The notes below the pieces were generated by a model, which was given only the letters and a program-made list of their open reading frames with translations, did not search any database and was not told where the DNA came from. Positions 44,978 to 62,430 of a DNA stretch of 64,000 bases are shown one piece after another (within the stretch, counting starts at the first letter, position 1; each line of letters opens with the position of its first letter). Source of the stretch: an uncultured virus (IMG/VR IMGVR_UViG_3300034082_002096) (Duplodnaviria; Heunggongvirae; Uroviricota; Caudoviricetes); the IMG/VR virus record IMGVR_UViG_3300034082_002096. The stretch is one strand, 5' to 3'. Position numbers and translations under genes: made by a program.

Positions 44978-45568
44978 TTATTTTTTTGTTACAATACTAT
45001 CAGCAAGCCCATAATTGATTGCTTCTGTGGCAGTCATATAATAATCTCGTGACATATCTTTTTCAAATTGTTCGTATGTCTTGCCAGCAGTATTATGTTT
45101 GACATATACTTCGATCAATTCTTTATTAATACGCAAAGTTTCATCCATTGCAATTTTCATATCCATTGCTGTTCCTCTAGTTCCAGAACTAACTTGATGG
45201 ATCATATGTCTTGCATGAGTCATGATGTAGCGATGGCCTTGTTCGCCTGCTTGTGCTAGTAGTGATCCCATGCTAGCTGCTTGCCCCATTACTACGGTAT
45301 GAACGGGACTTTTAATGAAATCCATTGTATCTAGTATACTGAAACCATCACTTACTGATCCACCGGGACTATTAATATAAAAATTAATAGGAAGGGAATT
45401 GTTATCACTCTCAAGAAATAACATTTGTGCAACTATTAGACTTGCACTATGACTATTAACATCAGTGTCTAGCATGATTATACGATCTTTTAAAAGACGA
45501 GAATATAAATCATATGCACGTTCACCGTGTGAGTTTTTTTCTATTACGCTTGGTATAAAATTTGGCAT
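44978..45568 (-). CDS. clpP: ClpP protease
   Basis: [31 protein letters not shown]. Confidence 0.96.
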
Positions 45569-45577
45569 TGTTTTTCC

Positions 45578-45985
45578 TTATTCAATAATTTCTTCGATTG
45601 TTGGATTTTCAAAATAATATTGCGATGATACATATTCCCATTCATTATTTTCTATATAGTCTTGGCGATTCCAATATTGTTCACTTTCTGGATCATATTC
45701 ATCCATCCATTTATAAATTTCTGAATGATCGCAATCATCAGAAGAAAACACATTAACATTAATAAATTCTTCATCGCCAGTTTCTTCGATATAAAATTGA
45801 TCTTCTCTAATGTAGTAGTCAGAATCAAATTCATCTATAGGAAAAATATCATCTTCATATATTTTGAGTCTTATATTACCATACTTACAACAGTTTGTCA
45901 ACTCAATATATATTTCGCCTTTTTTGTAGGTATGAACTTCATAAAATGTCCATCTATCCGTTGTTGTTATTAGATATTCTTTCAT
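45578..45985 (-). CDS. Acidic hypothetical protein
   Basis: ORF in operon. Confidence 0.7.
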   Translation of the reverse strand: MKEYLITTTDRWTFYEVHTYKKGEIYIELTNCCKYGNIRLKIYEDDIFPIDEFDSDYYIREDQFYIEETGDEEFINVNVFSSDDCDHSEIYKWMDEYDPESEQYWNRQDYIENNEWEYVSSQYYFENPTIEEIIE

Positions 45986-45986
45986 T

Positions 45987-46379
45987 TTACTCTTCTATTA
46001 CTTCTACAGGGACGCCAGCTTTTTTAGCAATGTCAATCATCATTTTTGTTCCTACCCCTCCACTAAATGCAATAACCATATCTGGTTTTCCTACTTTTAA
46101 CATTAATGAATTTCTTATAAATCCAGCCGATTTTCCATAGGTAGTCCAATCTGCTTCATATTCTTCTTGTTCGACATTTCTATCTTTTGCCCACATACTT
46201 GCTATACGGTCAGCACCTTTGGCACCGCCTTGTATTAAGACAATTTTGTTTTCTGATAAATTTATTGAATCATTTTTTGATTGCTGCGATACTTCATATA
46301 ATATATCTAATATTTCATATATTTTTGGTATGTTGCTATAATTTCTGCCGCCACATACTAATACTCTAAGTTCATCCAT
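45987..46379 (-). CDS. SLOG/YspA-like (DUF2493) protein
   Basis: VLVCGGRNY, GGAKGAD, AGFIRNSLM, GTKMMI. Confidence 0.85.
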   Translation of the reverse strand: MDELRVLVCGGRNYSNIPKIYEILDILYEVSQQSKNDSINLSENKIVLIQGGAKGADRIASMWAKDRNVEQEEYEADWTTYGKSAGFIRNSLMLKVGKPDMVIAFSGGVGTKMMIDIAKKAGVPVEVIEE

Positions 46380-46381
46380 AA

Positions 46382-47158
46382 TTAATCTAACTCTGATAAT
46401 GATCCATTTTTAATCAAATAGTCATAATCATATACTAATGGTAGTCTTTTTTCTATTTCCCATGTATACAATACACCAGATGGTATTTCAAATGTTTTAT
46501 AAAAATTGGTGCTTCCGTTATTAAATGAACTTAATGAAAACATTGTTTTTCCATTTGAATCATTTGCCGCATATCCAACAGCTTTGCCTGCTTTATTATA
46601 TACTGTATAGTAGTCAGTTACAAGTGGAATTTTGAATTTATCTATAGAAATAAAAACACTTCGTAATCCTTTATCTTCACCATATATGGTTATAAAGCTA
46701 TAAAGATTTTCAAAACCTGCTTTTTTTGTGGTTGACATTGCAAATGTATTATATTCGTTTATTTGTTCTGATATAATCTCTTTTGCATTTCCAGAATATG
46801 ATTTTATATCTACACTTGGTCTACGAACCATAGTGGTAACATATTTTGGTATTTTTACATATGCACTGTTATTTTTTAAATTACTTAATAAGTAATGATT
46901 GTCTATATAAAACTTTTCTTTTGGTATTCTAAACGAATGACTTAACTTACCAATTCCCTTAATATCAAATGCGTCGTTTTCTTTTCCAACATCAACAATA
47001 GTATCGGGTGCACCCATTTCTTTAGAATCAGGATACACGCTTCGTAGACCATCGGTTATTAACTTTTCGAGTGGTTTTCCTGTAGGAAGCGAATCAGTGT
47101 AATCCCAGTAGTGTTGAATGTGGCCTATTATTGAATATAATGAACTTTTAGATATCAT
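46382..47158 (-). CDS. Hypothetical protein, possible PD-(D/E)xK nuclease
   Basis: E...VDV...FDIK pattern. Confidence 0.45.
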   Translation of the reverse strand: MISKSSLYSIIGHIQHYWDYTDSLPTGKPLEKLITDGLRSVYPDSKEMGAPDTIVDVGKENDAFDIKGIGKLSHSFRIPKEKFYIDNHYLLSNLKNNSAYVKIPKYVTTMVRRPSVDIKSYSGNAKEIISEQINEYNTFAMSTTKKAGFENLYSFITIYGEDKGLRSVFISIDKFKIPLVTDYYTVYNKAGKAVGYAANDSNGKTMFSLSSFNNGSTNFYKTFEIPSGVLYTWEIEKRLPLVYDYDYLIKNGSLSELD

Positions 47159-48048
47159 GACTTATTATTGCACTCGTCACATAATGTTCTAACCCATGGG
47201 TTATCTGCTCTAGTGCTTCCTTTGTTTCCGCATACTTCACATGTACACATGCTCATGGAAGCTGCCATTGCAACAACACCATTAATATAATCATCGCTAG
47301 ATGTAGTATAAATTCGTAGACTTCCAAATTTTTCTTTTATCTGAACAATTTTGAAATTTGTATAGTTCATATTATAAACTCTACGATTAATATGCCAACA
47401 TGCATAATTGATAATATCTAACCAACCATTATTGCACTCTATAGAGCATGAAAGTATATTTTCATACTTTTTTGCTATTTCTTCATATTTTTCATTCATA
47501 TTAAAAATCTCTTTCTATGATACTTATTGTTGGACTTGTGAGGCTGGAATATTTGTTTAATATTTCTCTTGCTTTTTTTACATAGTCATCGCGTTGAAAT
47601 CCAGCTTTGTCTATACTCATTTCTATATAGCTATATGCAATTGATTGCAATGCACGTTTATAATCTCGTAATTCATTTTCACGATCAGATAATAAAAAAT
47701 CGGCTGCATCCATACCCCACTGTGCCCAATAGTTTTGTATAGATTGTTCTAGCGTTTTTCCACTAGAAACAATATCTGGGTCAGATGTTTGTATAATCCA
47801 ATTATTATCTTCAAAAAAATATTTACTATTTTCTGGTAATAAATTTTCTAATAAAATATTATTTGTCATTTTATATCACTATCATATTTGTTTACATTAT
47901 AGTCATCAATCAAAACTGGCCCTAGATCACGTTCTTGTTCCATATAATGACCATCATGAATAATCACATTTTTCATTTGACACGGACAACGTGGTTCGCC
48001 ATTTTGTGGCCCAATACATTCACACGTCCACATATCATTGTTTTTCAT
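47155..48048 (-). CDS. Three hypothetical ORFs (47155-47499 with QIKEKFG.LR and CxxC; 47501-47869; 47866-48048)
   Basis: Coupled co-oriented ORFs. Confidence 0.7.
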
Positions 48049-48434
48049 ATTTTACTTCCATCTATGAATTTATTAATACCATTTTTCATTGTAAGATAAT
48101 TGTCTAGATACATTTGAATATTTTTAGCACCAATTGGATTTTTACTATGAACATAAAATTGAAAATCTTGTGGAATATGCACAAGATTGTCCATGTCTCT
48201 AGATACCAATTCTTTTACAATATCATACCCAGTTGCTTCGCCTTTTCCCAAATCATGGTCAAAGCTTATATAAGAAGGAAACTGGTTACGCTTGGCGATT
48301 TCATAATAAACTTCAAATTCGTTACGAGCAATTGTCCATTCTTCACTCACATATTTATTATAGATGTAATATGGTGCCCATTTTACATCTTGCGGATTTC
48401 TCTCATCGTCAATAAAAAGATTCCAGTCCATCAT
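48045..48434 (-). CDS. Cyclic-phosphate-processing receiver-domain protein
   Basis: LFIDDERNP, ISFDHDLG, TGYD, VHSKNPIG. Confidence 0.8.
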   Translation of the reverse strand: MMDWNLFIDDERNPQDVKWAPYYIYNKYVSEEWTIARNEFEVYYEIAKRNQFPSYISFDHDLGKGEATGYDIVKELVSRDMDNLVHIPQDFQFYVHSKNPIGAKNIQMYLDNYLTMKNGINKFIDGSKI

Positions 48435-48460
48435 CCGTATCCATATATTATATTACTGAC

Positions 48461-48489
48461 ACTGTATCACATACATATGCCAATGTCAA
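48461..48489 (-). promoter_or_regulatory. Sigma70-type promoter
   Basis: TTGACA-N17-TACAGT. Confidence 0.6.
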
Positions 48490-48550
48490 GAACTTTAAAA
48501 TCTTAATAAAATGCAATAAATAGTAGTATACATTCAAATAGGACATCATT

Positions 48551-49726
48551 ATGACAATTAGAAAATTACGAGCAGGAAGAGTAGCAACCGCAAATGCGGC
48601 ATCTTGGATAGGTGATGCAGGAACAATATTTTATGATGAAGTTACTGGAACATTAAAAATAGCAGATGGCGAAACACCTGGTGGTAGAAGAATTGTATTA
48701 AACGCAGAAGATATAAATCTTGCATTTGGTGATTTTGTTGCTGAGAATAATAATTTATCTACTGTTCAGCCAAACCAAGATTTAAATCTTATATCTAATG
48801 GACTTGGAAGTGTTAATCTGGTAGGAGAATTTAATGTCCATACTACTGCTGGCGGATTAACCAGTAATCCAATATTTGTAGTTAAGTCTGATGGACAAAT
48901 AAAAATAATAGTTCCACAACCTGACAATTTAGAAGGTGCTGTTGGAATTATAGGAAATAATGCGGGCTTATTTCAAGCACCAGTTAATTCAGGAGTTATG
49001 CTTCACATTACTGGACAAGAAGGAATACCTAGTAGAAGTTATAATGATGCACTTGGAGATTATTCTGGATTTGTTGGTCGTAGAGCGAATGGAACACCAA
49101 GTGCACCTACCCAAATCTTAGCTAATCAAGAAGTGTCAAGATATGCAGCTAATGCATTTACTGATCAAGGTTATCAATTGACTGGCCTTGGACAATTACG
49201 TTGGTATGCTAACGAAAATCAAACAATAAGTGCACGGGGTGGTAGAGCAGAGTTTTGGGTTACACCAAATGGACAAATTACCGCACAAATTGTAGCCAGA
49301 ATTGATCCACAAAACGGAATCACTGCAACACAATTTACTGGTCCACTATTGGGAAATGTTGTGGGCAACACAACTGGAATACATACTGGAATACATACTG
49401 GATTATATAATAGAGGTATTAGAAATGCAGGAGTTATATCTGATGGTGGAACACTTACTATTAATTTTGAAACCGATGATATAGTAACATGCACTTGGGC
49501 CAATGGCATGACCCTTGCATATACTAATTATACTGCGGGAAGAGTTGTAAAACTAATAGCAACTAAGATAGCAGGTAGTGGAAATGATTCATTGAACTTA
49601 GATGGTGTTACTGCCTCGCAAGTATCGACAGGCTCTACTACATTTACTTCCTCTGCGAATATTACAACATTTGTCGAATTGATTTCTACAAATACTTCTA
49701 TTACTGGATTGTTTATCAAACTATAA
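48551..49726 (+). CDS. Tail-fibre-like virion protein
   Basis: TAAATA; G..GTIFYD..TGTLKIADG.TPGG; Gly/Thr/Asn-rich. Confidence 0.7.
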   Translation: MTIRKLRAGRVATANAASWIGDAGTIFYDEVTGTLKIADGETPGGRRIVLNAEDINLAFGDFVAENNNLSTVQPNQDLNLISNGLGSVNLVGEFNVHTTAGGLTSNPIFVVKSDGQIKIIVPQPDNLEGAVGIIGNNAGLFQAPVNSGVMLHITGQEGIPSRSYNDALGDYSGFVGRRANGTPSAPTQILANQEVSRYAANAFTDQGYQLTGLGQLRWYANENQTISARGGRAEFWVTPNGQITAQIVARIDPQNGITATQFTGPLLGNVVGNTTGIHTGIHTGLYNRGIRNAGVISDGGTLTINFETDDIVTCTWANGMTLAYTNYTAGRVVKLIATKIAGSGNDSLNLDGVTASQVSTGSTTFTSSANITTFVELISTNTSITGLFIKL

Positions 49727-49727
49727 C

Positions 49728-49752
49728 AAAAAAGCCCCAATGGGGCTTTTTT
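49728..49752. terminator. Bidirectional Rho-independent terminator
   Basis: A6-GCCCC-AAT-GGGGC-T6 between convergent units. Confidence 0.85.
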
Positions 49753-49755
49753 AAC

Positions 49756-49986
49756 TGGATCATTTTTTTGCTACTGTCGCGTCTACCATTCCGCCACTCT
49801 CTCATCAAAGATACTAGATGTATTGTTTACACAAACTTATCCAGCATATATGAACCAATAATCTACCGTTCATACCACGGGGGTTCCATAAACTATCTAG
49901 TATCCATGGCGAGAGAGGTAGGACTTGAACCTACAATTTTGTTTCCAAAACAGTTCTTATCGCTTTAATTTTGCTGAACTGATCCA
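49756..49986 (-). ncRNA. Circularly permuted tRNA-like RNA (Y-RNA/YrlA-like topology)
   Basis: tRNA 3' half with T arm and CCA (49954-49907) precedes the 5' half with acceptor strand and D arm (49803-49773); stems pair across the halves; ends pair as TGGATCA/TGATCCA. Confidence 0.8.
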
Positions 49987-49995
49987 TAATAGGGT

Positions 49996-50252
49996 GGTAA
50001 GAAGAATAAGACTGATAATCAATGACAATATACAATACACAAATTACAATCTACAATTCTGGCAATGGTTCATATATTTCTGGTTAGCATATGCACAAAT
50101 TCGCGTATTTAATATACCAGAGAACACAAACAATTTCGATCATACGATCTTGCTATGAATATTTTCATCCCAGAGGATAGTGATTAACAATTCATTATTC
50201 TTCTTACCTTATGGTATACCTAACACTGAGTGGACAATATCAGGTATCCCAT
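49996..50252 (-). ncRNA. Structured RNA: hairpin plus 14-bp IR-closed domain with tandem WTTG repeats
   Basis: GGTAAGAAGAATAA/TTATTCTTCTTACC; 13-bp hairpin with three G-U pairs. Confidence 0.6.
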
Positions 50253-50259
50253 AAATTCA

Positions 50260-50826
50260 TTATAGTAATTGTTCTGTTTCCAGAATTTTTACTGTGTCTG
50301 CATCAAGACTAATTTCTGTTCGAACATTAAGTTCAAGAAGTTGATCTTGTAATACTTGTTTTTGTTTTTTCAATACTGCTGCATTAGTCTTAAATGCATC
50401 TAAATCTTGTTGCAGCATAAAAGATGTTTTTACTAAACTATCTTGCCCGTAATATACTTCACCACCACTTTTACTACGAATTTTATCAAGTTTACCAGCA
50501 ATGACTTTTTCATCAATCATTGGGCGTTGTTTAGCCACCGAAGAATATACTTGAATTTTCTTTTCAAGACGAGCAATATTAGTCAGTAGATCATCAATAC
50601 CAGAGGTATTATTTGCAGAACTTACACTTTTCCTAACGTCATACAATACATCAGTAAGAGCATCACGCCGAGAAATATTTTTTACAAATTCAATACGACG
50701 AGCATCAATTACTTCTGTTGGATTTTCAAACTCTGTAATTTCAATATCAGTATTAATACCAATGCCAGATAGTGCTTCGTTAATTGCAAGTTGTAGTGCG
50801 TTTGCCTTACGGAGAGAAATTTTCAT
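50260..50826 (-). CDS. DIP1984-like coiled-coil protein
   Basis: MKISLRKA start, helical heptads, C-terminal LQDQLLELNVRTEI. Confidence 0.6.
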   Translation of the reverse strand: MKISLRKANALQLAINEALSGIGINTDIEITEFENPTEVIDARRIEFVKNISRRDALTDVLYDVRKSVSSANNTSGIDDLLTNIARLEKKIQVYSSVAKQRPMIDEKVIAGKLDKIRSKSGGEVYYGQDSLVKTSFMLQQDLDAFKTNAAVLKKQKQVLQDQLLELNVRTEISLDADTVKILETEQLL

Positions 50827-50853
50827 GTGCTTTTTCCTTTGTTTGTATGAGTA

Positions 50854-50882
50854 AATATACTATAGGCGGAACATAATGTCAA
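50854..50882 (-). promoter_or_regulatory. Sigma70-type promoter
   Basis: TTGACA-N17-TATATT. Confidence 0.7.
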
Positions 50883-50916
50883 GAACTATTTTACGTTCCG
50901 CCTACTTATTTTCAGA

Positions 50917-52050
50917 TTACATCATGTAATCCATCATTTTGCCATAATCGAACTGAACAGGCGGTGCATTTTTAGTAATAATCAGTTTTGCTTCATTAGG
51001 CATATCACCAATCTTATACACAAATGTATTAGTTTCTGGATCAAACTGATGAATGTTATTTGATTTGAAACTGATATCACCATCGCTGTCAAGTAGAGAT
51101 TTAATGCTTTTCTTGAGAACAGCATTTTTCTTAAACATATGTTCAATCAAGTCTTCGTCGTCTAGTGGATTAAATTCCAAATCAAAATCATTCGGAGTAA
51201 ATCCACGATAAGTCGGATAAAGCTTTACATTGATTCCGCCATATTCAAAGTTGATGCAATGGGTGTCATCACGCCGTGTTTCAGGATCAATATTAAGAAC
51301 ACCAAGAACTTCGATAAGAGTTTCGTTATACCGATTCATTTCTTCAACTGCTGCTGCCAACATATCAAAGTTAAAATAGTTAAAGACTTGCGTATAACGA
51401 ACAACATCATCAATGTGATTTTTGTTTATCAGATTATCTTCGCAATATTCGCGAACAAACTTATTTTCAAGAGTATCAAACGAGAAGTTATAATAGATTC
51501 GTCCTGGGCGATTTTTAAGATATTCGCTCACATTATTTCGTTGATTTGTGGTCAACAAGAATAGTTTTTTACTTGGATACACACCGTCAAACAGTGTCAA
51601 GATTTTTTCTTGATCACTATAGTCGTATACCTTTTCAAATTCATCAAAAAGAATAATACATGGGCCATTAATACTTTGAACAAACTGGTTAAAACCATCA
51701 CCACAATATGGCTTATTGATTACCAAAGTAGGAATACCTTGTGATGCTGCATTGCGTGACACTAGCTTTGCTAGCATAGTTTTACCACTGCCTTTTACTC
51801 CATTGAGCAATACACCAGTAGTCAATGGGCGGCTAATAAAAGTGTTGATAATGCGTTCTGCTTTACGAGTGCAATCACCATATAGCTTTTTTGGAAGTTC
51901 AAACCCATCAATTGGTTCTAGCCAATATTGTCCAGACATTTCATTATATTGAACAATATAATTTTGTGCTGGTAGTGTTTCACAGACTTCGATGTTTTTT
52001 TCGTCCATCATGTGATATTTGTTGCCCATGCGGACTACATAGTGTGGCAT
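50917..52050 (-). CDS. AAA+ ATPase
   Basis: GVKGSGKT, LFDEFEK, TTN, NRPGR. Confidence 0.88.
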   Translation of the reverse strand: MPHYVVRMGNKYHMMDEKNIEVCETLPAQNYIVQYNEMSGQYWLEPIDGFELPKKLYGDCTRKAERIINTFISRPLTTGVLLNGVKGSGKTMLAKLVSRNAASQGIPTLVINKPYCGDGFNQFVQSINGPCIILFDEFEKVYDYSDQEKILTLFDGVYPSKKLFLLTTNQRNNVSEYLKNRPGRIYYNFSFDTLENKFVREYCEDNLINKNHIDDVVRYTQVFNYFNFDMLAAAVEEMNRYNETLIEVLGVLNIDPETRRDDTHCINFEYGGINVKLYPTYRGFTPNDFDLEFNPLDDEDLIEHMFKKNAVLKKSIKSLLDSDGDISFKSNNIHQFDPETNTFVYKIGDMPNEAKLIITKNAPPVQFDYGKMMDYMM

Positions 52051-52069
52051 ATTATTTCCTTTCGGTGAA

Positions 52070-52516
52070 TTATTGCAGGGGAATTGCAGTTACAGAGTTA
52101 AATGGAGAACCATCAATCAACTTGGTAGACCATACCAAATAGATCAACACATTTTTTTCAGAATCCAACATACGGCTTACACGCATTTCTTTGAACAAAA
52201 TGCTAGTATTTCGAGAAAATACTTCTTCGAATTCCGCATCTACTGTTCCTGTAATTTTTACAGGTCCAGTTGCACGACATGCAATAGAGAATCGAGAAGG
52301 GTCTTCTGCAAGACCTACGTAACCACTTACTCCACCAGTTTGAGCATAACTGACATAGCAGCTTGCATTTTCAACTTCTGGATCATCAAACCGTTCTACC
52401 GATACTTTATCGTTAGAACCAAGCAGTCGCCATGTTGTTTCAACACTACCAATAACATCAGCCGATGCAATAGTAGCCGTAAGCATAAGAAAAGTAGAAG
52501 CAAGAAGATTTTTCAT
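52070..52516 (-). CDS. creA: CreA family protein
   Basis: Signal peptide, FDDPEV...CYVS, EDPSRFSIACRATGP, LIDGSP. Confidence 0.88.
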   Translation of the reverse strand: MKNLLASTFLMLTATIASADVIGSVETTWRLLGSNDKVSVERFDDPEVENASCYVSYAQTGGVSGYVGLAEDPSRFSIACRATGPVKITGTVDAEFEEVFSRNTSILFKEMRVSRMLDSEKNVLIYLVWSTKLIDGSPFNSVTAIPLQ

Positions 52517-52549
52517 TCTGTTACCTTATTTGTGTTTCGTTATGAGTGT

Positions 52550-52578
52550 ATTATAGGCGATTCGTGTATGTATGTCAA
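52550..52578 (-). promoter_or_regulatory. Sigma70-type promoter with CGAATCG box
   Basis: TTGACA-N8-CGAATCG-CC-TATAAT. Confidence 0.8.
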
Positions 52579-52590
52579 CAAGAATTTTTT

Positions 52591-52667
52591 TGGTCCTAGA
52601 AGAGAGATTCGAACTCTGCCCTACGTGATCCACAATCGCGTGTGCTAACCGCTAACACTATTCTAGG
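52591..52667 (-). tRNA. tRNA-His(GTG)
   Basis: CCTAGAA/TTCTAGG acceptor, TT-GTG-GA loop, TTCGAAT, ACCA. Confidence 0.85.
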
Positions 52668-52675
52668 AATATTAT

Positions 52676-53461
52676 TTATTGTTTTGGTTCAAGAACTTTA
52701 TTAATTACACCAACTAAGCTATCTTTTTGATCATCTGATAGAGAATCGGTTTTTATAGCGTCTATGATAATATCCATTGCATCTTCCAACGGCATATCTT
52801 CGTCGTCCTCATTTTCATCTTCATCAATAAAGACAATTTTCGCAGCAACAATCTGCCCATCATCATTTCGTTTAACATAACACTCATATCCACCATCGCC
52901 ATAGCCAGAATGACTTGCTACACCAAATCCAACATTTGAGATACCAAGATAGTTATATTCTTGATGTGTTCGAGTGCGTTCTTTCATATGTTGAACAATT
53001 TGTTGATGTTTTTCATCGAACCTATTTTCTTCTTTCAGAAGATTAACATATTCTTCAATGAATTCGTCGTCGTATGTTCTTACTGTGGTAGTGACAATTT
53101 GTCCTGCTGTGCCAGCACATACCTTTCCATAAAAAGTATTTAAATCGCCATATTCGCCTGTCTCTCCATCTGGATATTGACTATCATCAAAAAATCCAGC
53201 TTGACCACTATCAACACCTACATTTACTTCAGTAAGTTCGTTTATATTTTCAAAAGAATAATCTTTATGCCAAATAAAAATTTCAGCAATTCGATCACCC
53301 CATCCTGTTTTAGAATCAGGAAAAATAAGAGTGTCAGCAAACCAGTCTCCTACTAATACATTATCAACTATTCCAGAACACCAAATATCTTTAGTGTAGC
53401 ATGGGTCAGTAACACGAATAGTCGAAGAATTTATTGTAAATGAAGTAATATTTGCTGACAT
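52676..53461 (-). CDS. Hypothetical protein (DUF4241-like)
   Basis: VTDPCY, VGVDSGQAG, SGYGDGGY. Confidence 0.7.
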   Translation of the reverse strand: MSANITSFTINSSTIRVTDPCYTKDIWCSGIVDNVLVGDWFADTLIFPDSKTGWGDRIAEIFIWHKDYSFENINELTEVNVGVDSGQAGFFDDSQYPDGETGEYGDLNTFYGKVCAGTAGQIVTTTVRTYDDEFIEEYVNLLKEENRFDEKHQQIVQHMKERTRTHQEYNYLGISNVGFGVASHSGYGDGGYECYVKRNDDGQIVAAKIVFIDEDENEDDEDMPLEDAMDIIIDAIKTDSLSDDQKDSLVGVINKVLEPKQ

Positions 53462-53484
53462 TATATTTCCTTTATGTTGAGGTT

Positions 53485-53513
53485 ATATTAGCTGATTCGA
53501 ATACTGAAGTCAA
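53485..53513 (-). promoter_or_regulatory. Sigma70-type promoter with CGAATCA box
   Basis: TTGACT-N8-CGAATCA-GC-TAATAT. Confidence 0.75.
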
Positions 53514-53519
53514 GTAAAA

Positions 53520-53840
53520 TCATGGTTGATATGGCATACTTCCGCCAAATAATGCACTTTGATCACCATCAATAAACCAAGGCATATCATCAATCCATAC
53601 ATCAATTTTAATTTTATGATTTTCCCACATAAAATATTTTTTAGGTTGAATATTGGTCCCAAAACATTTATCAGGACCGATAATTTTTCCTATAGTGTTT
53701 TTTGGATCATCCATATGATGTTCCGCTCGTGCTGATACACAATAAACTGTATGACCTCTAGATATAGAATATCTAGCAAATTCATCCCAAAGATGAGGGT
53801 CTTTTGTATAGGTATCATCGTAATCTAATGCGATAATCAT
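53520..53840 (-). CDS. Small HAD-like phosphatase
   Basis: IALDYDDT, VSAR, WIDD. Confidence 0.75.
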   Translation of the reverse strand: MIIALDYDDTYTKDPHLWDEFARYSISRGHTVYCVSARAEHHMDDPKNTIGKIIGPDKCFGTNIQPKKYFMWENHKIKIDVWIDDMPWFIDGDQSALFGGSMPYQP

Positions 53841-53861
53841 ATATTTTCCAATGTAAAGAAA

Positions 53862-53941
53862 TGGCACTCCTGAGAGGATTCGAACCTCTATGTGTCCAGT
53901 TACCCTTTCTACACGTTCGTAGCGTGAGGGGATACAGAAGT
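53862..53941 (-). tRNA. Non-canonical tRNA-Arg(ACG)-like RNA lacking a 5' D arm
   Basis: ACTTCTG/CAGGAGT-G-CCA; CACG-CTACGAA-CGTG; AGAGG-TTCGAAT-CCTCT. Confidence 0.75.
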
Positions 53942-53950
53942 ATATTGTAT

Positions 53951-54310
53951 TTATAAAAGTTTTAGATTTCCAGTAATTTCCATCAATTCACTGTGCAATG
54001 CAGGTCCAACAGCAATACATGTATTGGTAGGAACATTATTAAATTCAGTTTTTCCTGAATCTGTAATCAATGCGGTAATGATATTAGCAGATTTTGCTTT
54101 CTCCATAATATCAAACAATTCTTGTTCACTATCTACACTTACAGCAATCTTAGTAAATTGACCCGAAAGCCATGATACCACAGAAGGATGATCTAAATTT
54201 TCAAGAGTTGCTTTTAAACTTGCGTGACAGCCTTGTGCGATAAGTTTACCTTTACGCATGTTAAGGTCTTTTCGCATTATTATAATTTGTTTGTAATAAT
54301 CGTTTTCCAT
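53951..54310 (-). CDS. pth2: Peptidyl-tRNA hydrolase Pth2
   Basis: RKDLNMRKGKLIAQGCHA, ITDSGKTE, TCIAVGP, TGNLKLL. Confidence 0.93.
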   Translation of the reverse strand: MENDYYKQIIIMRKDLNMRKGKLIAQGCHASLKATLENLDHPSVVSWLSGQFTKIAVSVDSEQELFDIMEKAKSANIITALITDSGKTEFNNVPTNTCIAVGPALHSELMEITGNLKLL

Positions 54311-55571
54311 TATTTCTTATACTTTTTTAAAATATTTTCTGCTTGCCCCATCATTAGAGTAGCAGCAAGTTGAATTTCATCAAACTTATCTGGATCATCT
54401 GGATTGCAGTCAGTTTCTTCTATAAGAACTAACAATGCACTCATCCAATTTATGCAGCCTTCTAGTGTTCCGGTTAATTCATCCATTACCATTCTCTTGC
54501 TTTTGAATCTGCTATATCTTTTAATGCAAGAATAGTCATACTAATATTTGTAATTTCAATTTGACTAGTTTTTGCATTCCCATCCCAATCTTCGTCTTCA
54601 TACACAAGGTGTGTTTTGCCTTGTGTATGAATTATTTTGGTATGTTCGTCTATACGACTTACATAATAATCTGACATTATTTCATACCGTTTTTACGAAT
54701 TTTACGAGCAGCATTTTTGCTTACTTGTTGGAATACTTCGCCAAGATTGTAGTAAACAAGTTCCCATAGCCAGATTGCAGGCTTATGTGATAGTTCCCAT
54801 AATAGGGCAAACGGCCACATTAATACCCATGATGCGAGACGATTTTTGTTTGAAGAAGCTGACATAGGATATGAAGTCGAATCTAGAAATTGTTCAAACT
54901 TTTCTTCTGATTTTAGCTTATCAACATATTCTTCTTTTGAACTAGATGGAAAATTTATTTTGATCCATGATTCAAATGCCAATTGAATGTTTAGCTTATT
55001 TTTATTTACAAAGTTTGGAAATTTCCAAAAACCTGTAAAAAGTGAACCACATACAATATAAACAATTGCAAACAAGACAATGATGAATGGATTGCTTACG
55101 ATAGCAGCCCATACTGGCACTCCGAATACCCATTGTAGCAGTGATAGTCCAGCAATTAGTGTAATGGTTCCCATAGCAAAGTTGTCATATTCTGATACCA
55201 CAATCCCTACTGCCAAAAAAGCAAGTAGAAAAATACCAAACCATATGCCACTAGATAGTCCAAGTAGTAATATTTCCATTTATATTTCCTTTTTATTTTT
55301 TAATTCCAAGAGTCCGCTGAATTATTTCAAGCTGATCTTTCATTCCTTCTTTGTATGCATCTTCTAGCAAACGAGTAATTTGACTACGATGTGTATTTTT
55401 TCCAACCATTTCATCAAAAAAAGCAAAAGTTCTTGATCGCCAAGCTTTATCGTTCCACTTGGCGACCATTAGTTCACCTTCTTCATCAATATACCATTTT
55501 GTATATCCGGGACCATATCCATCATATGGATCATGTCTTTCGTCATTATATGGCATTACCATATGCTCCAT
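54310..55571 (-). CDS. Four hypothetical ORFs (54310-54492, 54486-54677, membrane protein 54677-55279, 55293-55571)
   Basis: Coupled co-oriented ORFs. Confidence 0.7.
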
Positions 55572-56047
55572 GCTAGATGTTTTGCTAAGTAATAGTCTGG
55601 ATAAGATAGATGGTCATATTCGTCATCTTTTAAGATTTTACGTTCAAGACGTTTATTTGCAGTGCGAACAGTTTTTTTGGACCACTCTTTATACAAAGTA
55701 TTACGGCCAGATTCATTCCACCAACCGTCTCTGCTAAATTTAGCATAACGCTTGATATTATCTTTAATTTCTGCATCAATATCAACATCATCATATACGA
55801 CTTTTACAGTAGCATACTGCCGATATTCTGGTTTTCTTATAGACCAGAATCCACCTTCTACTGGGAATCCACTATAATCACGTTTACGTTTTTCTTCGTA
55901 AATTTCCAAATCACGTTCAAACTTTTTCTTATTTTCATCGGTCATGATATATTCATAATGCCAACGCTCATAAGAAATATTACGTTTAATAAAGTGTTCT
56001 CTGGATTGTTCTAGAATCCATCTTGGCTTTCTATAAGTTCTACTCAT
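55556..56047 (-). CDS. Basic hypothetical protein (MSRTYRK start)
   Basis: GGAG SD; Arg/Lys/aromatic-rich. Confidence 0.75.
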   Translation of the reverse strand: MSRTYRKPRWILEQSREHFIKRNISYERWHYEYIMTDENKKKFERDLEIYEEKRKRDYSGFPVEGGFWSIRKPEYRQYATVKVVYDDVDIDAEIKDNIKRYAKFSRDGWWNESGRNTLYKEWSKKTVRTANKRLERKILKDDEYDHLSYPDYYLAKHLAWSIW

Positions 56048-56058
56048 TTTGTTTCTCC

Positions 56059-56105
56059 ATTAGGTTAGTAACCTAATCAGAGTCGTAATTAATCCAAAAT
56101 TTCAT
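56059..56105 (-). promoter_or_regulatory. Leader peptide MKFWINYDSD* with stop codon inside a hairpin abutting the SD
   Basis: AGGA SD, ATG at 56105, TAG at 56075-56073, ATTAGGTT-ACT-AACCTAAT then GGAG. Confidence 0.6.
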
Positions 56106-56117
56106 TTTAATTATCCT

Positions 56118-56642
56118 TTATCTTTCGTGCCATTGGCCCATCAGTGATTGAGCCTGCGTCATATGTTTATATAGTAATCCATTTTCAGAATCAGTATGGA
56201 CCCACCGTCCTTTTCCCAAAACTTCTTTGAACCTATATCGAGTATCATCGAATAGTATATAGTCTACCACATCTTCCGCATAGTTGTCAAGGTAATCTTG
56301 TACTTCGTATGCACGATCTTTGGCTTCCAATTCTGGATTATTCAGTGGATTGGTTTTCCAAGGATCAGCAAACTTACCACGAAAACCACTATTTTTAAAT
56401 GTAGTCATAACCCAATGTTTGGTCATTTCATGCTTATAATCAAAACCATCTTTCCATGTAGTCATCAAAACAAATGCAACCGGATATCTGTCCCACATTT
56501 TGTTACAAAAATCAATCGCAACTGGGTCAAATTTACTCCATTTCTCATATTCATTATCACACGAATAGTGAACTCTCGAAGATGTAAAAACACCATCAAC
56601 GTCAAGAAATGCAAAATATTTAGTTTTTTCAGGTCGCTGCAT
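56118..56642 (-). CDS. HAD phosphatase (RNA-repair type)
   Basis: FLDVDGV, TTWK, R..EV..YL, YILFDD. Confidence 0.8.
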   Translation of the reverse strand: MQRPEKTKYFAFLDVDGVFTSSRVHYSCDNEYEKWSKFDPVAIDFCNKMWDRYPVAFVLMTTWKDGFDYKHEMTKHWVMTTFKNSGFRGKFADPWKTNPLNNPELEAKDRAYEVQDYLDNYAEDVVDYILFDDTRYRFKEVLGKGRWVHTDSENGLLYKHMTQAQSLMGQWHER

Positions 56643-56665
56643 AACAAAACTCCATTATGTATATT

Positions 56666-56694
56666 ACGTTACTATGATTCGCTGCTTGTGTCAA
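56666..56694 (-). promoter_or_regulatory. Sigma70-type promoter with CGAATCA box
   Basis: TTGACA-N7-CGAATCA-TAG-TAACGT. Confidence 0.6.
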
Positions 56695-57049
56695 CCCATA
56701 TGATACGTGCATCTAGTGGCGGATTGTAGATTTTTTCAAACTTGCGAATAGTTCCTTCAACGTTTCTTCCATCATTTCTATATACTACATTTTTCCTACA
56801 TTTGTCTGGTGCATTTTCAAAATATATAAATGAAAAAGAATGATCTGGGTATCGTTTTTGTAACATTTCTACTGATATGCGTAATACACGATTATCACAA
56901 AAATTAACATCAGAAATAATAATATCGTCATTTGTTTGAATAAGTTGCTCTATAGATTTAATATCATCAATCACATAACCAGTCATTGAATTCAAAAGAT
57001 GTGATTTTCCACTTCCTGGTAATCCAATGACTAGAGTGATTGATGGCAT
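56672..57049 (-). CDS. Small P-loop kinase (polynucleotide kinase-like)
   Basis: VIGLPGSGKS, C..N..YR. Confidence 0.65.
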   Translation of the reverse strand: MPSITLVIGLPGSGKSHLLNSMTGYVIDDIKSIEQLIQTNDDIIISDVNFCDNRVLRISVEMLQKRYPDHSFSFIYFENAPDKCRKNVVYRNDGRNVEGTIRKFEKIYNPPLDARIIWVDTSSES

Positions 57050-57616
57050 TATATTAATCCTTTTGATTTTAACTCGCTATACAATGTATCTACTGAAATT
57101 GATTTCGAAGAATAATTAGTAGAATTACCATAATATTCTGCTTCTGATCTGCTATTATAGACTATAGACCTACAAAGTGCTTTATATTCAATAAAGGAAA
57201 TTTTTGGACATACTTTTTCTAATATTTGGTCAAACACCGTAAAATCTGGTTCTGGATTATCACTGGAATAATATGTAGCCTCTGTATCATCCCAACAGTT
57301 ACCACCACTGTATCCACCAGTTGACCATTCTGTTTTCAAGGTCTTACGTGGACCTTTTTCATCTTGATAGCGTTTTTTAGTTGGAAAATATTCTTCACCA
57401 GCTATTTCGTGAACAATTGTTTGAAATTCATTTCTGTCCATTTTGAATTACTTCCTCGTTATATAATTTTCCTGATTTAACCATCGTATCGCATCCAACC
57501 ATTAATAATGCAAAGCCAAAGCATATTGCAGTGAATTGCCATTGATTTTTCATTGCAATAATGAATATAAAAGTAAACGAAATAACTACAAATACTTGAA
57601 CAATTGTTATAAGCAT
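57049..57616 (-). CDS. Two hypothetical ORFs (57049-57441; membrane protein 57428-57616)
   Basis: Coupled ORFs. Confidence 0.7.
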
Positions 57617-57625
57617 TATATATTC

Positions 57626-58165
57626 CTATTCTTTTCCATGATGATCAATTGGTTTCCATATTTTCTTTTTCATAATACGACCAACATCATCGAAGGATAA
57701 TGGCATATAATTATGACAATCTACACCAACATCAATAGATAGTGAATTTGGATCATCTGGCAACGATCCATGGCTATGACCATATAATTGTATTGAACCG
57801 TAGTGACAACGATTCCAAACACGCATAGCATAGTGACATAGTGTAATCCATTGACCATTTACTTTGATTTCTTTTAGATCATCAATTGTATCCCATCCGA
57901 TTATTTGGACACCAGTTTTGTCATGGTTTCCTTTAATTAGATGCTTGATACCATTTAATCTATTGAAATATTCTTGTCCTTTTTCTAGATTTGAAAAACA
58001 AAAATCACCAAGAAACCAAACATGATCGTATTGTTGAATTTTTGAATTCCAATTAGAAATAATAGTGTCGTCCATTTCTTGAACCCCAGAAAATGGACGA
58101 TTACTATATTTAATAATATTTGCATGTCCAAGATGCAAATCAGAGGTAAACCATGTATTAGTCAT
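57626..58165 (-). CDS. Calcineurin-like metallophosphoesterase
   Basis: SDLHLGH, LGDF, GNHD, YGHSH, DVGVD. Confidence 0.9.
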   Translation of the reverse strand: MTNTWFTSDLHLGHANIIKYSNRPFSGVQEMDDTIISNWNSKIQQYDHVWFLGDFCFSNLEKGQEYFNRLNGIKHLIKGNHDKTGVQIIGWDTIDDLKEIKVNGQWITLCHYAMRVWNRCHYGSIQLYGHSHGSLPDDPNSLSIDVGVDCHNYMPLSFDDVGRIMKKKIWKPIDHHGKE

Positions 58166-59036
58166 TCTTCTATTCCAAAATGTTTCATCATAAATTTATT
58201 TGTTATTGGGTCAACAAACTGACCGCATTCTTTAATAATAAGCGTTGCAAACATTTCTAAATCTGGGTGTGCAAATGGGATTTCAAATCCTAGTCTGTCA
58301 TATTTTTGAATAGATTGTTCCGCAAGTTGTTTAATTTTTTCATTCATAATACTATGCCCACCTTAAAAAGAATTCTATTTCTTGTTCTTTATTATCAAAA
58401 TAAACGAGATCAGATATTGCCCAAAAACCATTATCATGACACCATTCGAAAATTTCTATTAACTTATCATCATCATTGTCAGTTTCTTTAATAAACTGAA
58501 TTCCATTTATTTCTTCACGTAAATACATTTCCCATACGTCTTCTTCTATTTCGACGGGTTGCATACTTGAAGGATGATGGAATTTTTTATATTTCATTAC
58601 TATTACTCTATATCTTCATCTAGCGGAACTTCTTGCGGATCGGCTGGAATTCTTGATTTATATAACTGCCCATTATGGTCACAGGCATACCATATACCAT
58701 CTACTAGTTTTTCAACCCATGCAATATGGTATGACGAATCCCAACTCAAACTACTAGCATTGGCATCCCACAAGCTTTCTGTCTCTCCTAAAGAACGTTC
58801 GGTTCCTGCGACTGAAGTATACGTTCCGTCTCTGTTACGAATATATTCACTATATATTACACGATATGTCATTCTAAAAATACACCTACATGACCCCATG
58901 ATACTTCAGTTGCACGTTTTGCAACTGAAACATTAGAGACTTCTATCCAATTATCTTTAAAATCTCCACCTTCATAATAGACTTGGTAATCTTGTGGTAA
59001 TGTTTGTAATTGTTTAATTAATTCAGATACTGTCAT
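58162..59036 (-). CDS. Four small hypothetical ORFs (58162-58347, 58352-58597, 58603-58872, 58869-59036)
   Basis: Tightly packed co-oriented ORFs. Confidence 0.65.
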
Positions 59037-59037
59037 A

Positions 59038-59263
59038 TTACCAACCGTCACTTCCCCATTTGCGATTTACTTCTTCATCAGTGAATTGTCCACCCATACG
59101 ATCAAAATTATCTTGACAAGATTCTGCTGAAGTATTTTTAAGTTCTGAAAACTTATTTGCAATTTGCCGTGCTACCTGATGATGTCCGATTATTCCACCC
59201 CATTCTGCATCATGGCGAACTTTTGTTTCAATTAGTTGTAAAATTTCATCGTGATAGGATCAT
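59038..59263 (-). pseudogene. 73-codon open frame one base out of register with its ATG
   Basis: ATG-A-TCC TAT CAC...; frame is open to TAA at 59038. Confidence 0.4.
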
Positions 59264-59604
59264 TATTACAATCCTTCGACAACCATTAATACAGCCTCAT
59301 ATATAACCCAAATTATGGCTGCTGCTAGTAGTACAAGAACCAGACCCACTAATATAGCAGCTACAATATCGGATACGGCAGCTCCTACAAACATAACTAC
59401 TAGTAGTGCAGTAATTAGTGCAGCTTTGCGTTCGTTATTCATTTTCTTCCCATTCTAAAAGTTTTTCCATAAGACCATACACACCAAGATTCTGAACATG
59501 CTGTTTAAAGGCTTGCTCTGTTGTAGTGCCCCAATATAACGATGGGATAAGGGTATAGGCTACATTATCAATCCACCATTGTTTGTATAGTTTATATGTT
59601 TCCA

Positions 59605-60720
59605 TCATATCACCATTCCATTTACGTCATGATTGTTGCTTCCATAAAACCAGTGTTTTTGGCTGGCAACGTGATTCGCTCTAACATACTTTGCCACACT
59701 TTGTCTAAAATGTCTATAGTCAAATGCATCTGCTATACGAACAACATAACCTTCATGAATATCACGATCAGTTTTTTCATTATATAATGAACGAATTTTT
59801 ACTTCATCCCATATTCCATCGTATAATACGGGAACCATTGGAATATTAAGTAAGTTAAACCATTCAACAGTATCGTCCCATGATAAACAAATATTTTGTT
59901 CATTCCAGATAGAAAAACCTAACAGATAACTTGAAAGATTATCATATTTTATAGAATGAACTGCATATAGATTTTCTGCACAAACTCGCCATCCATCGGG
60001 TAATTCATATGAACGTTGCATCCAAAAGTTTTTTGCCCAATCACGAGTATAATGTGATCTACCATCTACGCTACGAGCATGACAATATGACTTATATCCA
60101 GAAAAATTCTCACCATCCATCTTGCGAGTAACAATAACACGTTTACCTAAGAATCCAGATAAATCACGCATAATGCGGTCATCGTCTGTAATGCCGGGAC
60201 TCCACGATAAATGATAAGTTCTTGGATATTTTACATATTCTACAAATAAATCATCAATATCTGGATGCCAGCCCAATATTTTTTGAACTGACTCATCTGC
60301 AAACAATGGTCCTTTTGTTCGCTTCCCACTGTCAAGTATAACATTGCCCCATTTATCATAAACGTGGTCATAATACATATCTTCTGGAAGAACGATTTTT
60401 TCAATCTTTGCAGAAATACGAATATCTTCTACGCTAATAGTAGTTATTTCTGCATCAGCATGACAGCCTATTGGTTTATACATTCCTTTGCCAAAATTTA
60501 TTATTCCTGCATCACAAAGTGTTGCACCATTTTCTAAATAATATCCACCATCTGACCATAAACGCCGCTCAATGATATGGTGTGCATCAAGTTTTATAGG
60601 ATCACCTATTTCTTTGCCCATTATTATACGGCGTTCACCTTCTTTGATGCCACATATCACGCAACGATATCCATCACGTTCAAAAACTTCTTTTCTAAAT
60701 TCATCACGTGTTAATAGCAT
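59605..60720 (-). CDS. HNH-like domain fused to ATP-dependent RNA ligase
   Basis: RDGYRCVIC...AHHI...NGATLC; YVKYPRTYHL, TRKMDGEN, EGYVVR, AKYVR. Confidence 0.85.
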   Translation of the reverse strand: MLLTRDEFRKEVFERDGYRCVICGIKEGERRIIMGKEIGDPIKLDAHHIIERRLWSDGGYYLENGATLCDAGIINFGKGMYKPIGCHADAEITTISVEDIRISAKIEKIVLPEDMYYDHVYDKWGNVILDSGKRTKGPLFADESVQKILGWHPDIDDLFVEYVKYPRTYHLSWSPGITDDDRIMRDLSGFLGKRVIVTRKMDGENFSGYKSYCHARSVDGRSHYTRDWAKNFWMQRSYELPDGWRVCAENLYAVHSIKYDNLSSYLLGFSIWNEQNICLSWDDTVEWFNLLNIPMVPVLYDGIWDEVKIRSLYNEKTDRDIHEGYVVRIADAFDYRHFRQSVAKYVRANHVASQKHWFYGSNNHDVNGMVI

Positions 60721-60744
60721 TTTATTTTCTCTATAATTGTAAAA

Positions 60745-61938: not shown

Positions 61939-61986
61939 ATATTATCCTATCGTTTTCTTGTTAATTGTTTATTAATTAATCAGTAA

Positions 61987-62430
61987 TTACAAGTCCATAT
62001 TTTCCATTATACATAGCGAAAGAAAATGTTTTGCCATACTTTCATGTAGTGGAAATGCAAATTGTTCAGTATCGCCAGCATAAGATGATAATGCAAAAGC
62101 AGATACTTCTGAATTGATAACCAGTTTAAGAAAGTCGTCTTTGTTGAATTCACGAGTTATACAAAAAATTAAAACTTGATTATTTGGAGTAATTAAACTT
62201 TTCCATAATTGAAGTTCACTTTCGCTAATAAGCAGTCCAGTTTCTTCTTGCAATTCTCTACGAGCAGCAATTTCAATGCTTTCGCCTTCATCAACAAATC
62301 CACCGGGAAGGGCAAACATTCCTTTTTTTGGTTCAATATTACGTTTTACTAACAATAGTCGAGTTCCAAGTTCATCAACAAATGGAACTAATAGCACTGC
62401 TACTGGTGTGGGATTTTTATATTCAGTCAT
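61987..62430 (-). CDS. Nudix hydrolase
   Basis: GGFVDEGESIEIAARRELQEETGL Nudix box. Confidence 0.93.
   Translation of the reverse strand: MTEYKNPTPVAVLLVPFVDELGTRLLLVKRNIEPKKGMFALPGGFVDEGESIEIAARRELQEETGLLISESELQLWKSLITPNNQVLIFCITREFNKDDFLKLVINSEVSAFALSSYAGDTEQFAFPLHESMAKHFLSLCIMENMDL

Follow-up and report, generated by a model that had tools for sequence, protein, structure and literature searches.

A permuted tRNA-like phage RNA as a probable Y-RNA-type partner of a divergent Ro60-like protein

Introduction

What purpose is served by an RNA whose tRNA-like halves are encoded in reversed order and whose two ends pair with each other? The question is raised by a 64,000-nt stretch of DNA from an uncultured virus of the Caudoviricetes (IMG/VR record IMGVR_UViG_3300034082_002096; the window, by which we mean the whole stretch analyzed), which carries a 231-nt structured element at 49986-49756 on the minus strand, with a terminator downstream. 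A sequence-only reading had described the element as a circularly permuted, CCA-bearing tRNA-like RNA opened at the anticodon loop, and had offered three roles for it: a Ro60-binding Y-like RNA, a decoy for anticodon nucleases or an aminoacylated effector.

Ro60 and its Y RNAs form a conserved RNA-surveillance particle, and phage versions of it are only beginning to be studied. Permuted tRNA genes and two-piece transfer-messenger RNA (tmRNA) genes share the order 3′ half, CCA, intervening segment and 5′ half, and tandem duplication is the accepted route to permuted tRNA genes.

Here we propose, with a probability of roughly 0.6, that the window element encodes a stable, Y-RNA-like non-coding transcript, built of two modules and acting with a phage Ro60 partner. 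The Y-RNA kind is already known; the scaffold RNA family to which we assign the element, and the protein-binding module of that family, appear to be new. A literature search, with the supplements of the cited papers outside its scope, found no published description of the family.

Results

The element folds as a tRNA body between paired ends

The RNA is numbered from position 1 at 49986, and all feature coordinates below refer to the minus strand. Every segment named by the sequence-only reading lies where it had been placed, and a pairing check bears out the permuted tRNA-like anatomy. The two ends pair 7/7 in a closing stem, P1 (UGGAUCA at 49980-49986, RNA 1-7, with UGAUCCA at 49756-49762, RNA 225-231, followed by GUU as in relatives). 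The acceptor stem also pairs 7/7 (CUCUCUC at 49911-49917, RNA 70-76, with GAGAGAG at 49797-49803, RNA 184-190, which is followed by U8-G9), and an anticodon-stem-like helix pairs 5/5 (ACUGU at 49950-49954, RNA 33-37, with ACAGU at 49773-49777, RNA 210-214). The first acceptor pairs are G1-C72, A2-U71 and G3-C70.

The remaining parts follow in order from the 5′ end. Next to the closing stem is a bulge, GUUCAGCAA (49971-49979). Beyond the anticodon-like strand come a variable-arm hairpin, UUUG-GAAA-CAAA, a class II tRNA feature (49938-49949, RNA 38-49; 4/4 pairs), and the T arm, GUAGG-UUCAAGU-CCUAC (49918-49934, RNA 53-69; 5/5 pairs, loop UUCAAGU). The discriminator G and CCA are encoded directly after the acceptor 3′ strand (49907-49910), and a 103-nt insert (49804-49906) separates them from the acceptor 5′ strand. 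The D arm, GCG-GAAUGGUAGA-CGC (49779-49794, RNA 193-208; 3/3 pairs), and an A-rich joining strand, AGCAAAAAAA (49763-49772), complete the element. We take the D arm and the body to resemble those of tRNA-Leu. The 7-bp stem of the termini lies beyond unpaired regions of 25 and 10 nt, and both unpaired regions hold the word AGCAAAA beside the anticodon-like stem.

A 271-nt segment folded freely to −83.6 kcal/mol (z = −4.5; equalled by 0/200 shuffles). This unconstrained fold regained the stems listed above, the variable-arm hairpin included; only the 5-bp anticodon-like stem was missed, a local hairpin competing with it. With the full permuted cloverleaf as constraint, the energy was 2.3 kcal/mol above that of the free fold. 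The insert forms a long irregular hairpin that prolongs the acceptor stem: a small internal loop is followed by an 11-pair helix and further inner pairs, coaxial with the acceptor stem, and the G-CCA sits unpaired in the internal loop. No tRNA or tmRNA was called at the element by ARAGORN, and Rfam gave nothing there at gathering thresholds; elsewhere in the window the two yielded three ordinary tRNAs only.

The element very probably belongs to a family of scaffold RNAs

Searches with the primary sequence were unproductive. With blastn the element had no match among 50,697 phage records and terminator-only matches in 80 loci around the gene for the neighbouring AAA ATPase, and an exact 28-nt T-arm/acceptor pattern had 0 matches in viral contigs. 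A covariance model of the element with its assigned structure (R1) was then run on 50 whole viral records having relatives of that ATPase. Its full-length matches, 115-129 nt in size, lack the 103-nt insert; the strongest scored 54 (record G003), 42.5 (G026) and 39 bits (G010), and matches at E ≤ 1 were present in 17/50 records. R1 also yielded 60-nt matches that consist of the two element ends only.

The relatives share a 15-nt word at the 5′ end. The exact 15-mer of the window element is the family consensus, and is expected 1.2e-4 times per 64 kb. A scan of viral contigs for this word gave >121 loci; among the 80 examined, R1 made 49 matches in 37 loci, the best (locus L178) at 80 bits.

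A 7-bp closing stem, the 5′ bulge GUUCAGCAA, an A-rich strand on the 3′ side and an apical part make up the family core. In long forms (100-132 nt) the bulge reads GUUCAGCAA or one of its variants UUUCAGCAA and UUACAGCAA, and T arm, acceptor hairpin (closed by 0-17 nt), D arm and A-rich strand are present together, usually with an anticodon-like stem and sometimes with a variable hairpin. In short forms (45-63 nt) the closing stem, bulge and A-rich strand are laid out identically, and the hairpin at the apex is usually a 5-bp stem under a 7-nt loop whose second position is U. The loops of short forms in loci L161-L240 often look like anticodon loops (CU-UUU-AA, CU-GUU-AA, CU-GUA-AA, CU-UGU-AA and CU-UCA-AA). 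The bulge is the same or nearly so in long and short relatives, with the pattern (G/U)U(U/A)CAGCAA, and is the family signature and the proposed protein-binding site. The window element fits this pattern and has an A run followed by UGAUCCA; the A-rich run before the closing stem is kept family-wide.

The apical domain is where members differ. The window copy carries a tRNA body, and R1 aligns the long members with it from end to end. Among long members, the D arm is of class I type in some and Leu-like, accompanied by a variable hairpin, in others. Some members lack an acceptor stem, two long ones among them, and many present a small hairpin only. Because the tRNA bodies differ among members, the scaffold is the constant part and the tRNA body a variable cargo. 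The opening at the anticodon loop, seen by the sequence-only reading as a one-off, is better described as the closing stem and bulge that the whole family retains. In L141 and in both copies at L178, the nearest relatives, an N-CCA likewise follows the acceptor strand. We have high confidence that the window element is a member of this family.

The family is widespread, and its members usually lie within phage tRNA arrays, on the tRNA strand and with spacers as short as those between tRNAs; typical flanks are ...CCA GUUUU upstream and GUU(A/G/U) downstream. Unannotated members were found in seven Felixounavirus-type records (Salmonella phage SapYZU01 was examined, and has one short and one long family RNA inside its tRNA array), in six Enterococcus phages (VRE9_3 examined) and in Synechococcus phage BUCT-ZZ01. 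The blastn matches of short forms to named phages were mostly noise. One genome per species was searched for a motif-plus-stem pattern across 185,579 prokaryote species; of the 25 loci obtained, none fitted R1 and the two that were read appeared protein-coding.

Two sets of candidates were rejected. A T-loop/D-arm pattern with a gap of 100-130 nt had 58 loci, 12 of them scanned with Rfam; the set was discarded as tandem tRNAs, because in those 12 the tRNA genes holding the D-arm matches were ordinary or unusually long ones. Six loci (L085, L091, L100, L104, L121 and L138) have tandem tRNA-like genes of 97-125 nt with the acceptor strand AGUCAGG and a Leu-like D arm, and these long genes reach only 33-40 bits with the Rfam tRNA model. 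The stable RNAs of T4 and T5 gave no match with R1 or with the scaffold model R3 described below, and the only T4 match was a tRNA-tRNA junction.

The stems of the family covary

Covariation among homologues, a check that the sequence-only reading had suggested, came out in favor of the structure. Fourteen long members, the window excluded, were aligned with MAFFT and analyzed with RNAalifold. The consensus contained the closing stem, T arm, acceptor stem and D arm, and 16/22 pairs were changed on both sides. Paired cells made up 93.2% (71.0% in shuffles) and the covariation score was 0.554 (0.166 in shuffles); 0/500 shuffles were as high on all five measures, and slid controls were 38-46% paired. 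Changes on both sides affected 4/7 pairs of the closing stem, in which 99% of cells were paired, 3/5 pairs of the T arm, 3/4 pairs of the D arm and 6/6 modelled pairs of the acceptor helix. The anticodon-like stem was absent from this consensus; on reading the sequences, a helix matching it was seen in most, not all, relatives, and a short second helix after the bulge was found to covary (ACUU/AAGU, AUCUU/AAGAU).

Reverse tests with two models built without the window, a long-form model (R2) and a scaffold model from 22 short forms (R3), are weaker evidence. R2 matched 49851-49986 with 34.6 bits and scored a T4 tRNA-tRNA junction at 38.5 bits, so that R2 alone is not specific. The scoring of tRNA-tRNA junctions with permuted models is also noted in the YrlA literature (PMC4201824). 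The sole R3 match in the window was the bulge motif (49934-49981, 21 bits, E = 0.015), and R3 had no match in the tRNA regions of T4 or T5.

A DUF2828 protein with a predicted Ro60-like fold accompanies the family

The TROVE profile, positive in the Deinococcus and Bacteroides controls, matched 0/50 of the related records. In the Felixounavirus record a gene annotated 'vWFA protein', 1 kb upstream of the RNA, encodes Pfam DUF2828 plus DUF7788. At least 7972 proteins, out of 8000 candidates scored, match this family at E ≤ 1e-5, and 120/120 proteins among the matches listed have DUF2828 together with DUF7788, one of them also VWA_2. A profile of three DUF2828 proteins found nothing below E = 0.1 among PDB sequences. 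An AlphaFold2 model (475 aa, 19-row alignment; predicted local distance difference test score, pLDDT, 82.5; predicted template modeling score, pTM, 0.82) places a helical region of ~260 residues at the N terminus and an alpha/beta domain at the C terminus. When this model was searched against the PDB with Foldseek, the top 13 matches were all Ro60/TROVE proteins (E 1.9e-9 to 5.7e-6, query-normalised TM 0.39-0.64, ~510-585 alignment columns), and only vWA domains came afterwards. The Ro60 matches comprise the phage phiLo protein (9KOP and 9L5Y), Xenopus (1YVR, 1YVP and 2I91), Deinococcus (2NVO) and human Ro60. The DUF2828 plus DUF7788 protein is thus predicted to have a Ro60-like fold over its full length.

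Scaffold RNA and protein gene occur together, a pairing reminiscent of Y RNAs and Ro60 in bacteria and animals. Among 55 records, DUF2828 was present in 20 and the scaffold RNA in 21 (19 by R3 at E ≤ 0.01, with W01 and W02 added by R2): 18 records had both, 3 the RNA only, 2 the protein only and 32 neither (Fisher p = 1.5e-9). In the 50 records not picked for the RNA the counts were 14, 2, 2 and 32 (p = 1.4e-8); both p-values overstate independence, because the records are related phages. The five discordant records were all fragments, and among the eight records that are ≥90% complete, three had both and five had neither. The two records with the most similar ATPase (G002 and G003) have RNA and DUF2828 gene alike, 52 kb apart in G003.

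The linkage was also approached from the protein. In 80 loci spanning ±2 kb around DUF2828 genes, R3 made 35 matches in 28 loci and R2 made 17 matches, adding three loci, for a total of 31/80. All matches were on the strand of the gene (R3, 35/35; binomial p = 6e-11) and sat just upstream or just downstream of the DUF2828 open reading frame (ORF). In locus L316 (480-1060, plus strand) four tandem elements directly precede the ATG of the Ro60-like ORF, and one of them is the closest relative of the window element. The third of these elements (~885-968) departs in its closing stem and contains a hairpin resembling a T arm. Locus L142, from a related phage, carries a full-length GOLLD RNA (2291-2719, minus strand, 196.6 bits) ~0.7 kb from a long-form family RNA, and by coordinates the Ro60-like gene lies <2 kb away on the same strand.

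The element is not a member of Rfam YrlA

Bacterial YrlA RNAs are defined by T, acceptor-stem (AS) and D arms, the motif GNCGAAN0-1G and a position ≤4 kb from the Ro60 gene on the same strand, and the search reported with this definition covered only genomes having a TROVE protein (PMC4201824). With Rfam 15, the window element gave terminator look-alikes and a partial tRNA match (17 bits at 49918-49970) only, at E ≤ 10, so the full-length YrlA match that the sequence-only reading had asked about was not obtained. Four relatives' loci, scanned at E ≤ 0.1, gave tRNAs and one GOLLD RNA only. YrlA (RF02553) did match two relatives, from a small search space and below threshold, and these matches cover positions 27-81 and 23-87 of 114; the core is therefore YrlA-like and the terminal module is not. 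The likeness in T-acceptor-D order that had been pointed out earlier holds to this extent. By the tests run, the window element is not a member of Rfam YrlA.

The window copy is distinctive and conserved

Compared with its relatives, the window copy stands out by its class II body with G73-CCA and by the 103-nt insert in the acceptor loop, which is missing from all other long members parsed, their loops measuring 0-17 nt. A variant DNA contig from another lake sample has 3 substitutions in the 231 nt of the element (RNA positions 183, 204 and 209), none of them in a stem. In the same contig the 224 nt upstream of the element have 12 substitutions and 2 indels (p = 0.006 versus the element), the insert has 1 change in 103 nt (p = 0.04) and the end of the neighbouring ORF has 4 changes in 227 nt. 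By these counts the whole element, insert included, is conserved like coding sequence, and the comparison places it under purifying selection.

Near-identical DNA of this giant phage is present in lake-water metagenome DNA runs. In a single RNA run, contigs covered 50044-50235, in the upstream spacer, and an unrelated T-arm match, not the element. A 42-kb contig from a hydrocarbon metagenome matches 49754-49796 (D arm plus 3′ scaffold) with three differences and then diverges, which suggests a relative with a different 5′ part. The nearest record (G001) is a 100% identical fragment that stops at window position 47672, short of the element.

Genome context

As the sequence-only reading had said, a terminator follows the element: an intrinsic terminator of 12 pairs plus a T run (49753-49727). 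A 391-aa ORF (48551-49726, plus strand) converges on the RNA and could use the same terminator; it has no Pfam or PHROG family and is unlike the DUF2828 protein. No relatives were found for the 188-aa ORF upstream of the element. A weak promoter-like candidate lies at 50111-50139 on the minus strand (9/12 consensus matches with a TG extension); since five such sites were found in the region for 4.1 expected, it is no evidence by itself.

With ~33% G+C, the window has genes for a DNA polymerase of family B, topoisomerase II, thymidylate synthase, dihydrofolate reductase, thymidine kinase, ClpP and a ClpB-like ATPase. The closest relatives of this polymerase are jumbo-phage enzymes (Sinorhizobium phage Phosso 49.5%, Atu_ph07 46%, Rak2-like phages ~42%). 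A heme oxygenase gene (31766-32299) adjoins one for a ferredoxin-dependent bilin reductase (31090-31773, minus strand), and PhoH is encoded at 28825-29784; such auxiliary genes are typical of cyanophages, and here they accompany a polymerase that most resembles the enzymes of Rhizobiales and Rak2-like jumbo phages. Around the element, a minus-strand run (44978-63128) encodes ClpP, YAcAr SLOG, cREC, AAA ATPase, CreA, DUF4241, PTH2, HAD_SAK_2, metallophosphatase, RNA ligase, NUDIX and SIR2 proteins, with tRNA-His, tRNA-Ile and tRNA-Phe interspersed; the genes are of RNA-repair and NAD-conflict types. At 8236-10634 (plus strand) a MoxR-like AAA ATPase gene is followed by one for a DUF2201 metallopeptidase/VWA-like protein, which is unrelated to the Ro60-like family.

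Discussion

A two-module RNA with a probable Ro60-like partner

What receives direct support here is the structure of the element, its family membership, the covariation of the stems and the linkage of the family to a Ro60-fold gene. From these we propose the following arrangement. The paired ends, the bulge GUUCAGCAA and the A-rich 3′ strand would form a stem-bulge-stem that serves as the docking site for a phage-encoded, divergent Ro60-like protein (DUF2828 plus the vWA-type DUF7788). The tRNA body would be displayed as cargo in the order T arm, acceptor and D arm, as in bacterial YrlA, and because it keeps the elbow nucleotides it could engage a host factor that recognises tRNA. The resulting ribonucleoprotein (RNP) would act on host RNA metabolism or on a defence system, and this phage would carry its Ro60-like gene outside the window. 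Of the three roles offered earlier, the Ro60-binding Y-like RNA gains strong indirect support from the genomic tie of the family to a Ro60-fold protein. That the element works as partner of a DUF2828-type Ro60 we consider probable, by a modest margin of confidence, because binding is deduced and the protein gene is not in the window.

Several observations weigh against this proposal. It is genomic linkage only that points to binding of the scaffold by the protein. No TROVE or DUF2828 gene was found among the ORFs of ≥100 aa scanned in the 64-kb window. In 49/80 protein loci no RNA was found within 2 kb at the thresholds used, the relatedness of the records tempers the co-occurrence statistics, and short forms directly upstream of the ORF could be cis-acting leaders instead. 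The window copy is solitary, with its own terminator and 2.6 kb to the nearest tRNA, outside any array. On the side of the RNA models, YrlA found no match in window positions 49650-50100 at E ≤ 10 and scored its two relatives at 33.1 and 29.0 bits, below the gathering score of 69; a regular-expression search of the 231-nt element for GNCGAAN0-1G and CGAA had 0 matches; and R2 scored the T4 junction above the window.

Alternative explanations

The alternative that survives best, which we regard as unlikely, can coexist with the Y-RNA proposal. It holds that the transcript becomes a two-piece, CCA-ended tRNA mimic: RNase P would cut before the 5′ acceptor strand, 3′ trimming would stop at the CCA, the 103-nt hairpin would be lost, and the pieces would stay joined by the closing, anticodon-like and acceptor stems, with a free end that an anticodon-independent synthetase, of Ser or Leu type, might aminoacylate. 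Such processing is possible: the encoded G-CCA directly abuts the acceptor 3′ strand and is unpaired, within an internal loop; N-CCA is present in the nearest relatives as well; the variable arm and 3-bp D stem are class II features; and the insert has just one change in the variant strain. The precedents point both ways, since YrlA of M. smegmatis is described as cleaved by RNase P and supplied with CCA, and the same source describes none of this cleavage for Salmonella YrlA or for Deinococcus Yrn1 (PMC4201824). Most long relatives have an acceptor closed by 2-17 nt and no CCA, and two have no acceptor stem, so that a free end is no requirement of the family; where a loop closes the acceptor, a free CCA end is impossible unless the RNA is cut. 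The RNA-run contigs, moreover, leave the element uncovered.

Combining this processing with the Y-RNA proposal gives a form that we consider doubtful, in which the 103-nt hairpin is excised and a G-CCA is exposed on a class II body carried by a Ro60-docking scaffold. If true, the RNP would have an end that can be aminoacylated or recognised by the CCA enzyme or EF-Tu, and a phage Ro60 particle would be tied to host tRNA charging or surveillance in counter-defence.

It is rather improbable that the RNA acts, without a Ro60-like partner, as decoy or sponge for host defence nucleases that target tRNA or for other tRNA-binding factors. Such a role would suit the position of the family within phage tRNA arrays at tRNA-like spacers, the short forms with their anticodon-arm-like 5-bp stems, 7-nt loops and U at loop position 2, and the window neighbours cREC, SLOG, HAD_SAK_2, RNA ligase, PTH2, SIR2 and NUDIX. 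However, it is the scaffold and not the tRNA-like part that is conserved across the family, and the tight, strand-specific link to a Ro60-fold gene is left unexplained. The specific version put forward earlier, a decoy for anticodon nucleases, does not fit the window copy, which has no anticodon loop.

We consider it highly improbable that the element is a functionless, decaying relic of a class II tRNA tandem duplication, made up of what is left of the first copy (its 3′ half) and of the second (its 5′ half) around a spacer. Permuted tRNA genes do arise by tandem duplication, a T4 tRNA-tRNA junction does score with a permuted model, and the word AGCAAAA does recur in both unpaired regions beside the anticodon-like stem. 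Decay, however, is not what the locus looks like: every stem is perfect, the stems covary, the element is more conserved than the adjacent spacer, it has its own terminator, and its ends bear a conserved family scaffold shared by unrelated phage groups.

A true permuted tRNA gene or two-piece tmRNA, circularised or assembled for decoding or ribosome rescue, matches in gene order but is the least credible of all, as ARAGORN called none, the Rfam tmRNA and permuted-tmRNA models had no match at E ≤ 10, the joined ends yield no 7-nt anticodon loop, there is no G3:U70 pair, and on reading the sequences the frames from the conserved GCA, as candidates for a tag, are not conserved across relatives.

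Significance

A very large protein family with a predicted Ro60 fold escapes the TROVE profile. One Ro60-like phage protein, gp130 of phage Bas63, has a counter-defence phenotype, and its RNA partners have so far been a matter of guesswork (10.1101/2024.10.10.617714). The candidate RNAs lie in cultured Salmonella/E. coli, Enterococcus and Synechococcus phages, which makes binding, processing and the role of the cargo directly testable. The scaffold family also accounts for unannotated gaps, and probably for some mis-called genes, in phage tRNA arrays. Its design appears modular, a single docking scaffold showing either an anticodon-arm-like hairpin or an entire tRNA body.

Comparison with known systems

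Red-algal permuted tRNA genes and two-piece tmRNA resemble the window element in placing the 3′ half and CCA before the 5′ half. In contrast to them, the element lacks both an anticodon loop and a tag frame and goes undetected by ARAGORN and Rfam. The small stable RNAs of T4 (rnaC and rnaD) and T5 (RNAI, RNAIII, RNA1 and RNA2) resemble the family in another respect: their function is unknown, they lie among phage tRNA genes and some of them are tRNA-like.

The closest bacterial counterpart is YrlA. In both, the paired ends form a stem that encloses variable region, T arm, acceptor stem-loop and D arm in that order, and the elbow nucleotides are kept. As described for YrlA, the scaffold RNAs are encoded near a Ro60-fold gene on the same strand and have a short companion without a tRNA body, like YrlB; some YrlA RNAs have long acceptor stems, one of them cut by RNase P, which may be compared with the extended acceptor of the window element (PMC4201824). 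The two differ in that the scaffold family has the bulge GUUCAGCAA in place of GNCGAAN0-1G/CGAA, its partner is of the DUF2828 type and invisible to the TROVE model (0/50 records), its RNAs usually lie within phage tRNA arrays, and the window copy has a 103-nt insert after an encoded CCA.

Among phages, ROT/TROVE proteins have been reported in a small subset of jumbo phages, in work that also covers cREC and SAK repair genes (Iyer et al. 2021, PMC7824862). The Ro60-like gp130 of Bas63 (a Felixounavirus) is encoded directly upstream of tRNA genes and counters the Ppl defence, and the authors of the PhageMaP preprint guess that some annotated Bas63 tRNAs are Y RNAs, without naming any (preprint 10.1101/2024.10.10.617714). 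By position gp130 is like the DUF2828 protein of the Felixounavirus record examined here, whose gene also lies just upstream of the array.

The RNAs of phage phiLo differ from the scaffold family in having the CGAA motif and in being described as hairpins, never as 'tRNA-like' (PMC12135203); it is by this description that we set them apart. In other respects phiLo offers the nearest phage parallel. Its Ro60 binds two Y-like RNAs encoded upstream, which are stem-bulge-stem structures, and assembles with the host PNPase (PMC12135203). Yrl1 and Yrl2 (PDB 9KOP and 9L5Y) are, like the RNAs described here, phage Y-like RNAs of stem-bulge-stem type that adjoin a phage Ro60 gene, and no structure matched the DUF2828 model better than the phiLo protein.

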